Below are positions 62,419-63,523 of a stretch of 64,000 bases of DNA, piece after piece. The DNA comes from a virus. Within the stretch, counting starts at the first letter, position 1, and the number at the start of each line of letters is the position of its first letter. Where the stretch lies: positions 4,888 through 68,887 of the IMG/VR virus record IMGVR_UViG_3300023174_004352. One strand, given 5' to 3'. The notes under the pieces are model-generated. The model made no database searches and was not told the origin of the DNA. It saw nothing but the letters and a program-made list of their open reading frames with translations. Position numbers and translations under genes: made by a program.

Positions 62419-62991
62419 TTAGAGCAAGCCTTCTGCTTGTAATGTTGCCACTACGTCATCTGCAAGAGGAATCTCTGTGCGGATGTTAGACTCAAGGATT
62501 TCATCATTGAGCTTCTGCTTCTCTTTCTTGAGATTTTGAATCTCAGTCTTTACCTGATTGATCTGCTCCTGACTTACTACAGAAGTAGATACTGTGTCAC
62601 TGTAACCGTAGATACGGCTACGACCTTCGTCCTTGCTGTCACGAATCTTAGCCAGCTTGCCCGTGATCACTGCTAGGTCGGTAACAGGTGCTGCCTTGGC
62701 TAGAGTCTCGAGCTGACCAACACGCTTGTCAATGAAGGCAGCTTTGGCCAATGCTAGGTCAATGCCTGCACTAGTGTTTGCCTGTCCAACCAAGCCACGG
62801 ATGTTGTATAAAGCCAACAACAGCTTTTGACGACGGGCGTCATTGGCAAACAATTCATTGTTTGCACGAGTCAATTCAGCCGCAACATCCTGAAACTCAT
62901 TGAGTTCGAGTGTGTGCTGAATGTCAATAGCCTTCATGGCTTCCTGGATGCTGTTTTGAACAGCATTTGCTTTACGCAGAGTGATATTCAT
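62419..62991 (-). CDS. Coiled-coil protein, 190 aa (possibly DIP1984/DUF6847-like)
   Basis: Heptad-rich; MNITLRKA start and LNDEILESNIRTEI end. Confidence 0.7.
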   Translation of the reverse strand: MNITLRKANAVQNSIQEAMKAIDIQHTLELNEFQDVAAELTRANNELFANDARRQKLLLALYNIRGLVGQANTSAGIDLALAKAAFIDKRVGQLETLAKAAPVTDLAVITGKLAKIRDSKDEGRSRIYGYSDTVSTSVVSQEQINQVKTEIQNLKKEKQKLNDEILESNIRTEIPLADDVVATLQAEGLL

Positions 62992-63211
62992 TTTTCTTCC
63001 TTGTTTTCAAAGTTGCTAGAAAATCTTTTCTAGTGTACTGTCCAGCGGCAATTTCTCGCAATGCCGTTACATTGGACGAGGCATCTTTGCCTTCTACTTT
63101 TTGCATTGAGCCGTTTTTAATTTCTCTTGATCGTTGTGCCGCAGCCAGAATCATTTCAAATCTTCCTGCACCGTATGCTGCCACTGCTTCTTCTGATGTA
63201 TATCTTGACAT
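62972..63211 (-). CDS. rpoZ: RNA polymerase omega subunit homolog
   Basis: MSRYTSEEA...RFEMILAAAQRSREI...VTALREIAAG; GGAG RBS. Confidence 0.88.
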   Translation of the reverse strand: MSRYTSEEAVAAYGAGRFEMILAAAQRSREIKNGSMQKVEGKDASSNVTALREIAAGQYTRKDFLATLKTRKKNEYHSA

Positions 63212-63232
63212 AATCACTCCATGTTAAAGTAA

Positions 63233-63488
63233 CGGGTCAACGAAAGGTCAAGTAATAGACCGGACAATATGCAATGAAGGGTTGTAATCTTCGTTGACAA
63301 TGTGCAAAATACAATACACAGAGGCCCACATATATCCAATCAGCAAATGACATTTGGTTAGAATTGGAGCACATGAACACGTTCCAGTTTCAAGTTGGAT
63401 TGTAAGTTCGGAGTAAGCATGAAGCTCATTCCTATGTGTCTACCCTCATCTACCTTTCGTCTTACCGGTTGTGTATTACTACACAACA
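63233..63488 (-). ncRNA. Candidate ~255-nt structured RNA/leader upstream of rpoZ
   Basis: 5' hairpin GUUGUGUA-GUAA-UACACAAC; long-range GACGAAAGGU/ACCUUUCGUU and GUAGAC/GUCUAU stems. Confidence 0.65.
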
Positions 63489-63494
63489 ACAACT

Positions 63495-63523
63495 ATTATA
63501 CTATACTTGTTGACGAATGTCAA
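63495..63523 (-). promoter_or_regulatory. Consensus sigma70 promoter for the ncRNA-rpoZ-tRNA unit
   Basis: TTGACA-N17-TATAAT. Confidence 0.9.

Follow-up and report, generated by a model that had tools for sequence, protein, structure and literature searches.

The locus examined here raises the question of what occupies the stretch between a strong promoter and a small gene pair at the end of a giant-phage contig, and with which partner it acts. The DNA in question is a 64-kb window (the whole stretch that was analysed, 64,000 nt), the last part of the 68.9-kb IMG/VR viral contig IMGVR_UViG_3300023174_004352, whose CheckV completeness of 19% indicates a jumbo phage of roughly 350 kb. The locus is situated on the minus strand at the contig end and reads, 5' to 3', a 2-oxoglutarate/Fe(II)-dependent (2OG-Fe(II)) oxygenase gene, a promoter, approximately 280 nt without a credible open reading frame (ORF), an omega-like ORF, the gene of a protein originally described as a coiled-coil protein (CC), 440 nt of non-coding DNA, tRNA-Met(CAU) and tRNA-Pro. 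The promoter, the ORF-free stretch, the omega-like ORF and the CC gene lie where the original prediction, made from the letters of the window, had placed them. Our analysis demonstrates that the ORF-free stretch is a conserved, covarying, structured, non-coding RNA of approximately 260 nt, widespread in giant phages and previously undescribed, which we call the heptad-NUG RNA. The explanation we favour, with a probability of about 0.5, is that it represents a new phage non-coding RNA whose array of heptads would be bound by the dimer-forming CC protein. The two principal features are as follows.

63232..63494, minus strand: structured non-coding RNA ("heptad-NUG RNA"), about 260 nt, supported by blastn and covariation
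62419..62991, minus strand: CC protein, a 190-aa helical bundle from a family of unknown function, overlapping the omega stop by 20 nt

The first protein-based set used to evaluate the RNA consisted of 80 listed IMG/VR loci encoding CC at 57-75% identity; here and below, counts from scans of IMG/VR, metagenomes and species genomes are among the loci listed and represent lower bounds. The 319 nt upstream of the omega ORF gave blastn matches in 78 of 80 listed loci, the other two having no upstream DNA. At one locus (L006) the RNA retained 88% nucleotide identity against 69% amino acid identity for CC, making the RNA better conserved than the protein. An alignment of 50 distinct RNA copies (A1) was assembled, and 121 distinct copies were collected overall. 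RNAalifold analysis of the 50 copies yielded 56 base pairs, 29 of them with compensatory changes. Covariation was then assessed in 74 RNA sequences, less than 90% identical, from the viral and metagenome scans. In the RNA structure 95.6% of cells were paired as compared to 31-43% in slid controls, 37 of 59 pairs had changed on both sides (15-21 in the controls), and the number of cells changed on both sides was 419 (36-62 in the controls). In 500 shuffles the observed value was not attained for any covariation measure. The MAFFT alignment and the RNAalifold structure were derived from the same data, which somewhat favours the structure, and the alignments are poor within the variable hairpins of the RNA; the margin is nevertheless large. 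As a single sequence, the window RNA folds only mildly better than shuffled versions (z = -2.0), and the structure is accepted because of covariation and not because of folding energy. The covariation analysis proposed with the original prediction has consequently given a strong result.

A peptide encoded in the region, the outcome that had been named as fatal to the proposed RNA, was searched for among the 74 sequences and rejected. A recurrent ATG is present only at alignment columns 62 (58 of 74 sequences, opening ORFs of 4-75 codons) and 104 (36 of 74), neither column yields a conserved ORF, and the spurious ORFs across the region use different frames over the same nucleotides in relatives. 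Known RNA families did not account for the element either. With Rfam 15 at gathering thresholds only tRNAs pass within the window, nothing overlapped the RNA over positions 61900-63600 at a permissive E <= 5, and ARAGORN, which also reports tmRNA genes, found five tRNAs only. No description of this RNA was found in the titles and abstract openings of the literature, which is not proof of absence. An origin in cellular genomes was considered and discarded: a motif scan of 185,579 species genomes returned at least 120 loci, of which one of those listed carries the RNA and the other 119 are chance matches. This only copy among the listed species-genome matches (L254) is found at one end of a 7.5-kb contig belonging to a Crocinitomicaceae metagenome-assembled genome (JBDNIA010000359.1, 5796-7552), and the contig is probably a binned phage fragment. 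Its bin may be either a hint of the host or a binning artefact.

The covarying structure can be broken down into the following parts, which are listed in RNA order with pairing partners given where strands are distant.

63468..63487, minus strand: hairpin P1 with the GNRA loop GUAA; 7 of 8 pairs change on both sides
63438..63467, minus strand: 5' strands of the closing helices, namely P2 (CGG), P3 (10 bp), AGA bulge and P4 (UGAG + GGUAGAC), from covariation
63467-63465 with 63235-63233, minus strand: helix P2, CGG/CCG
63461-63452 with 63248-63239, minus strand: helix P3, 10 bp
63448-63438 with 63260-63249, minus strand: helix P4, UGAG/CUUG plus GGUAGAC/GUCUAUU
63323..63380, minus strand: helices P7 and P8 (63380-63363 with 63340-63323) around a loop with two NUG units; 6 of 10 and 5 of 5 pairs, respectively, change on both sides
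63265..63321, minus strand: heptad array of four YUG-N4 units (63321-63298), a variable hairpin (63297-63275) and two UUG-N4 units (63274-63265)
63233..63260, minus strand: 3' strands of P4, P3 and P2 (GUCUAUUACUUGACCUUUCGUU...CCG), from covariation

The GNRA hairpin recognized in the original prediction is present at 63487-63468, with GCAA, GAAA or GUAA as the loop in relatives, and the 10-bp long-range stem corresponds to P3. The 6-bp stem was correct as a stem and incorrect in its length, as it actually comprises 4 + 7 bp behind an invariant AGA bulge. The motifs GGUAGA-N-GAG and CUUGACC-UU are invariant in all 74 sequences, and two variable hairpins separate P4 from P7/P8 in RNA order. A candidate extra helix between CAA (columns 127-131 of alignment A5) and the last UUGU (columns 302-306) is paired in 87.5% of cases with almost no covariation.

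The most distinctive part of the RNA is its array of NUG triplets. The original prediction had reported four YAUUG copies; the repeats are real, and the count has to be revised to six YUG triplets with a period of 7 nt, whose G residues are located at 63319, 63312, 63305 and 63298 and, past the hairpin, at 63272 and 63265. Two further NUG units reside in the internal loop at P8, with G residues at 63351 and 63344. As an exact heptad array, the multivalent repeat motif is thus stronger than had been noted. The G residues are spaced 7, 7, 7, x, 7 in 50 of 50 A1 sequences, x being the interval that spans the variable-length hairpin, and in three A1 sequences without the hairpin x is exactly 7, resulting in (YUG-N4) x6. 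Distant relatives retain the principle. A locus with a CC only 44% identical (L116) has six NUG units in a row, while a clade with CC proteins 52-54% identical (L222) displays its array as 3 + hairpin + 3. Across the 121 distinct copies a 2 + 4 + 2 arrangement occurs in 100, six or seven consecutive units occur in 9, and one clade has an irregular 7, 8, 7 spacing. Within the 64-kb window 0.21 occurrences of YTG-N4 x4 would be expected, and two are present. The triplets are conserved and the four spacer bases are variable, a pattern that is the hallmark of repeated protein subunits reading the RNA at regular intervals, and not of base pairing. Operators of the HutP/TRAP type share this pattern, keeping the triplets and their spacing while the bases in between change. 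The triplets also represent the bacterial start-codon set (UUG, CUG, AUG and GUG), and a period of 7 places successive triplets in all three reading frames.

The candidate reader of the array is the neighbouring CC, and the two are found together in each of the scans. In the second protein-based scan the RNA was present in 78 of 80 listed loci, both misses being without upstream DNA. A first motif scan, built on AGTCT where most copies have GGTCT, fitted a divergent subgroup only: 57 of 71 listed loci were chance matches, the remaining 14 carried the RNA, and CC was present in all 14. A two-anchor motif scan of metagenomes returned at least 119 loci, 71 of those listed being true copies. Every metagenome copy with at least 330 nt downstream is followed by CC (48 of 48), with omega in between in 23 of 48. 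At one locus (L016) the whole RNA-CC-tRNA module is duplicated in two complete copies. Among the copies listed, every RNA with enough flanking DNA adjoins a CC gene, and within the clade of the window no evaluable CC gene lacks the RNA. The proposal that homologues of the 190-aa protein should be consistently flanked by such RNAs has therefore been borne out at every evaluable locus. Distant CC representatives P0254 and P0218 had no loci in IMG/VR.

The same adjacency bears on the first rival explanation, according to which the RNA is purely a cis-acting 5' leader (an operator, riboswitch or translational control element) of omega or CC, answering to a metabolite, tRNA or host factor and having no role as a free RNA. 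Such a leader would agree well with the arrangement in the clade of the window, where a Shine-Dalgarno sequence and start codon invariably follow 15-30 nt behind the end of the RNA and no terminator was found on the coding strand between the RNA and the downstream ORF. Its ends are clamped beside the ribosome-binding site, and a possible alternative pairing of A1 columns 201-203 with 215-217 competes with helix P7. What argues otherwise is that the downstream ORF is not constant, being either omega or CC, that the whole RNA is conserved and not just a compact aptamer, and that in three uncultured lineages the order is reversed, with the RNA located downstream of CC.

L483, RNA after CC: nhmmer E 6e-17, covariance model E 1.9e-12
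L512, RNA after CC: nhmmer E 1.5e-14, covariance model E 3.6e-9
L520, RNA after CC: no nhmmer match, covariance model E 0.0058

The covariance model (CM) represents the 3' half of the RNA only. In L483 the RNA begins directly after the CC stop and ends in a U run, and it is followed by tRNA-Glu with no ORF; this arrangement, together with the reversed order, indicates that the RNA is not merely the leader of CC. The adjacency of RNA and CC thus certainly survives gene-order reversal within uncultured clades. A 186-nt insert is also found in L512 (positions 1765-1950) between CC and the RNA, flanked by a 13-nt inverted repeat (UAUAGCAUACUAG...CUAGUAUGCUAUA), and it may be a small mobile hairpin element.

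Cultured phages appear to extend this pattern. Nine isolate-phage records encode CC homologues at approximately 26% identity, including the Caulobacter phages CcrColossus and CcrPW and five Brevundimonas vB_BpoS phages, and they share a layout in which about 62 nt precede the CC homologue and an unannotated gap of 284-313 nt follows it. The CcrColossus gap contains UUG-N4 x6 (JX100810, 201497-201533), a hairpin that is closed by CCGGAA/UUCCGG and carries two further units in its loop, and a closing helix GGAAGCGG/CCGCUUCC adjoining GG-AGA-A-GAG. The CM places its two best matches, with E 0.064 and 0.072, precisely within the gaps of CcrColossus and CcrPW, and the match that ranks third has E 2.7; these E-values are rough. 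The Brevundimonas gap holds five NUG triplets at period 7, the only such run in the 352-kb genome, in which a reversed-pattern control also occurs once. Judged from these likenesses, an unannotated counterpart of the RNA is probably present in the cultured Caulobacter phages, and the RNA-CC adjacency probably reaches down to 26% protein identity. The CcrColossus element precedes an unrelated acidic 81-aa ORF, a further point against a leader. The ORFs behind the element in CcrColossus and Domovoi (81-82 aa, acidic) were considered as possible omega proteins and found not to be omega-like. Because the downstream gene varies and because of the L483 arrangement, we regard a pure leader or riboswitch as unlikely. 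The regulatory leader envisaged in the original prediction is accordingly not upheld as a pure leader, the RNA lying downstream of CC in L483, L512 and L520 and probably in CcrColossus and CcrPW.

The family and structure of CC were also analysed. The family is of constant length, comprises 1743 database clusters at 90% identity (E <= 0.001) and 884 clusters at 50% identity, and occurs on contigs of up to 384 kb. The CC of the window had no family match in Pfam (E <= 0.1), PHROG or NCBIfam (E <= 1). AlphaFold2 modelling with a 70-sequence alignment demonstrated a confident helical bundle (pLDDT, the predicted local distance difference test, of 95). The best solved fold match in both structure searches was PDB 3kdq, an uncharacterised Corynebacterium diphtheriae protein, which scored E 0.09 with a template modelling (TM) score of 0.33-0.41 in Foldseek and Z 10.6 over 141 aligned residues with a root-mean-square deviation of 6.0 in VIA, where a Z of about 13 is advised for helical bundles. 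This match is too weak for a helical protein, and no kinship is therefore claimed. A language-model feature search pointed to a DUF6847-bearing viral cluster at 0.92, 19% of whose members carry that family, and none of 70 CC family members matched PF20935 at E <= 0.01. The tentative DIP1984/DUF6847-like label of the original prediction thus retains weak support from the top fold match and the cluster and none from Pfam or NCBIfam, leaving it a remote lead and not a membership. In titles and abstract openings no description of a DUF6847 function was found, the word 'septicolysin' appearing as a term only, without DUF6847 or PF20935. Among predicted viral structures, CC-like folds are found in CcrColossus, the jumbo phage pEa_SNUABM_47 of Erwinia, Vibrio phage Vp_R1 and two giant viruses of eukaryotes, Catovirus and Yasminevirus.

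Self-association of CC was predicted with four copies of the chain. The interface score ipSAE was 0.59 as compared to 0.00 for the best of three controls. This mark is attained by 20 of 30 proteins whose solved structure is a pair of identical chains and by 1 of 23 whose solved structure is a single chain, although the use of four copies and a custom alignment means that this calibration holds only roughly. Contact agreement between the complex runs was at least 86% and partner pLDDT at least 85. The predicted interface is one symmetric pair along residues 24-143, and CC is therefore predicted to form symmetric dimers.

Upstream of the RNA in the window lies its promoter.

63495..63523, minus strand: sigma-70-type promoter with TTGACA (63523-63518), a 17-nt spacer and TATAAT (63500-63495)

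This promoter had been called perfect, and its hexamers are indeed a 12/12 match and the sole such site within 61800-64000. Most aligned related loci conserve the hexamers with a variable spacer. In some lineages (L036, L081, L222/L232) the promoter is replaced by a tRNA 3' end, and in several lineages the RNA starts immediately after the tRNA CCA with no promoter.

Taken together, the results suggest a mechanism. Because the RNA is always beside the CC gene, the two probably act together as an RNA-protein particle. The closed fold, consisting of the GNRA hairpin, three stacked closing helices, the AGA bulge and the inner helices, displays a mostly single-stranded array of six NUG triplets plus two in a loop, and this array may serve as a multivalent docking platform for CC. 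As CC is predicted to form symmetric dimers, several dimers could line up along one RNA, one site per heptad, to give a ribonucleoprotein (RNP). Recognition would then follow the principle of HutP or TRAP, readers of periodic triplets. In the clade of the window a strong early-type promoter of its own, or processing behind a tRNA, would give rise to the RNA; it would be a stable species rather than a leader only, and translation of the following ORF may be subject to a secondary feedback from it.

Several observations weigh against binding of the array by CC. The expression and ends of the RNA are read from the promoter and the tRNA junctions alone, the adjacency could reflect co-regulation instead of binding, and binding of the RNA by CC is putative. 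CC has no recognised RNA-binding domain and no HutP- or TRAP-like match in profile searches. Apart from 3kdq its fold searches returned generic helical bundles only, the Z of 10.6 being below the trusted level, and its predicted oligomer is a dimer and not a hexamer. The protein is also near-neutral to acidic (isoelectric point 5.6, family median 6.3, net charge about -1). In the cultured phages, the Caulobacter match consists of marginal CM E-values and motif likeness, while the Brevundimonas phages had no CM match and only the 5-unit NUG run. Neither the Caulobacter nor the Brevundimonas element was detected by nhmmer with the A1 profile.

The lack of basic character in CC lends some weight to a second rival, in which the RNA serves to sequester, as a decoy or sponge, a host factor recognizing U/G-rich heptads (a cold-shock-domain protein, S1, or 30S subunits with initiation factors) and CC is a mere co-expressed neighbour. 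A multivalent array follows the logic of CsrB and RsmZ. Moreover, the promoter belongs to the early type that host RNA polymerase recognizes, the triplets coincide with the bacterial start-codon set, and an initiator-like tRNA follows the module. Such a sponge leaves unexplained why the RNA remains tied to CC through order reversal and down to 26% protein identity, no host factor of such specificity was identified in this analysis, and the heptamer likeness to cold-shock proteins is putative. We consider it improbable that a sponge of this kind accounts for the element.

The remaining members of the module place the putative RNA-CC particle in a context that points towards translation or tRNA biology.

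62972..63211, minus strand: omega-like ORF, 79 aa, an optional module member (PF01192, TIGR00690)
61979..62418, minus strand: non-coding spacer of 440 nt between the CC stop and the tRNA, partly conserved and not constant in the module
61903..61978, minus strand: initiator-like tRNA-Met(CAU) with a C1xA72 mismatch, acceptor CGCAGG...CCUGCAACCA and loop CUCAUAA

In the clade of the window the module is embedded in a large tRNA array. Bacterial initiator tRNA is marked by a 1:72 mismatch, an acceptor stem of this kind, a CUCAUAA loop and three anticodon-stem G-C pairs. In 76 of 80 CC copies the nearest downstream tRNA is initiator-like, with C1xA72 or A1xA72, the acceptor CGCGGG...CCCGCAACCA and the CUCAUAA loop. 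The mismatch accompanies the CAU anticodon, C1xA72 or A1xA72 being found in 78 copies versus 9 of the paired type. The three G-C pairs are missing from most copies; anticodon stems such as GGAGU/GCUCC prevail, and only a few copies have two G-C pairs there. A second tRNA-Met type with a paired 1:72 position is found elsewhere in the phage tRNA arrays. Within the 440-nt spacer, part of the related loci retain segment 62211-62272, with identities of up to 98%, and segment 61979-62111, with identities of up to 92.5%. The spacer is missing where the tRNA directly follows CC and has no Rfam match, and it may be a second RNA element.

The omega-like ORF probably starts at the ATG at 63211 behind GGAG, and it scores 34.5 bits against PF01192 (cut-off 26) and a marginal 24.2 bits against TIGR00690 (cut-off 23.6). 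Its presence in only 27 of 80 listed related loci marks it as an optional insert and does not support the suggestion that the RNA forms one unit with rpoZ or regulates it. A database word search yielded four omega-like clusters, all with PF01192, and the omega protein had no tblastn match in 50,697 isolate phage records. No description of a phage-encoded omega was found in titles and abstract openings, which does not amount to proof of absence.

A bolder reading of these surroundings is that the RNA-CC particle would be a phage device aimed at translation initiation, capturing or pre-loading initiator tRNA or 30S initiation complexes. It would do so either to mislead the host as a decoy or to provide the phage with a loading platform. 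The idea is drawn from the start-codon set being present in all frames and from the initiator-like tRNA that follows the module in the clade of the window. Host IF3 is said to check the anticodon-stem G-C pairs of initiator tRNA, which the phage tRNA usually lacks. We hold this role to be quite doubtful; if true, it would constitute a new kind of virus-encoded translational takeover RNP. Weakest is the explanation that the RNA belongs to the processing or spacing of the tRNA-array transcript (as an entry site for RNase III, RNase E or RNase P, or as a stabiliser) and has no function of its own, which would fit its embedding in tRNA arrays, its start right after a tRNA 3' end in several lineages and a long imperfect closing helix of about 21 bp that could be an RNase III substrate, and which is very improbable given that in CcrColossus and Domovoi the RNA-like element lies beside CC and the tRNAs are far from this module, and that invariant single-stranded triplets within approximately 260 nt of covarying architecture exceed the needs of a cleavage site.

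Further features of the window were observed away from the module. At least nine radical-SAM (S-adenosylmethionine) paralogue ORFs are present, eight in a 16-kb island (20304-36057, both strands) and one at 60630-61865 on the minus strand, the latter with an HMPTM zinc ribbon and adjoining the tRNAs. Near the radical-SAM ORFs are genes for SAM decarboxylase and 2OG-Fe(II) oxygenase, and the window is unusually radical-SAM-rich for a phage. An open-ended ORF of more than 2548 aa (1-7644, minus strand) runs off the window start.

To our knowledge, few large non-coding RNAs combine a complex fold with a dedicated protein partner, and the known ones (RNase P, signal recognition particle, tmRNA, 6S and phi29 pRNA) mark basic processes. 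The CC family is abundant and the RNA is absent from Rfam. If the homology to the Caulobacter phages holds, the question becomes directly testable at the bench, and the exact heptad of start-codon-like triplets offers a simple, mutable experimental handle. The optional phage omega and the initiator-like tRNA within the module suggest an undescribed remodelling of host gene expression by giant phages.

The closest known systems are HutP with the hut mRNA and TRAP with the trp leader of Bacillus, in which a symmetric homo-oligomer recognizes short triplets that recur at regular intervals along single-stranded RNA. HutP binds UAG-N4, repeated three times, at two sites, giving a 7-nt period in two clusters, and the heptad-NUG RNA likewise repeats its triplets at a fixed period of 7 nt in clusters. 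It differs in its triplet, NUG as opposed to UAG or GAG, and in the setting of the array, a large closed covarying fold taking the place of a terminator/antiterminator switch. CC, encoded next to it, is an unrelated all-helical predicted dimer; neither the ring oligomer nor the terminator switch of those systems is found here. The analogy to CsrB drawn in the original prediction applies insofar as CsrB and RsmZ are protein-sponge RNAs, non-coding and able to capture proteins multivalently through a short motif present in many copies. The GGA motifs of CsrB, however, are irregularly spaced in hairpin loops, whereas the motifs here are single-stranded with an exact 7-nt period in a phage-encoded RNA that is tied to one protein gene and matches nothing in Rfam. 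Among phage elements, the T4 gene 32 leader has repeated short motifs to which the adjacently encoded protein binds cooperatively, controlling its own synthesis, and RNAs C and D of T4 are small stable species of unknown function, co-transcribed with phage tRNAs. The heptad-NUG RNA resembles these in being a phage RNA with repeated motifs by a protein gene in a tRNA-cluster setting; it has no sequence or structural likeness to them and can also lie downstream of CC without an ORF behind it. On the protein side, DIP1984/DUF6847 (3kdq; PF20935), a family whose own function is unknown, provides the best solved-structure match of the CC model, but CC has no PF20935 sequence match and is approximately 40 residues longer.

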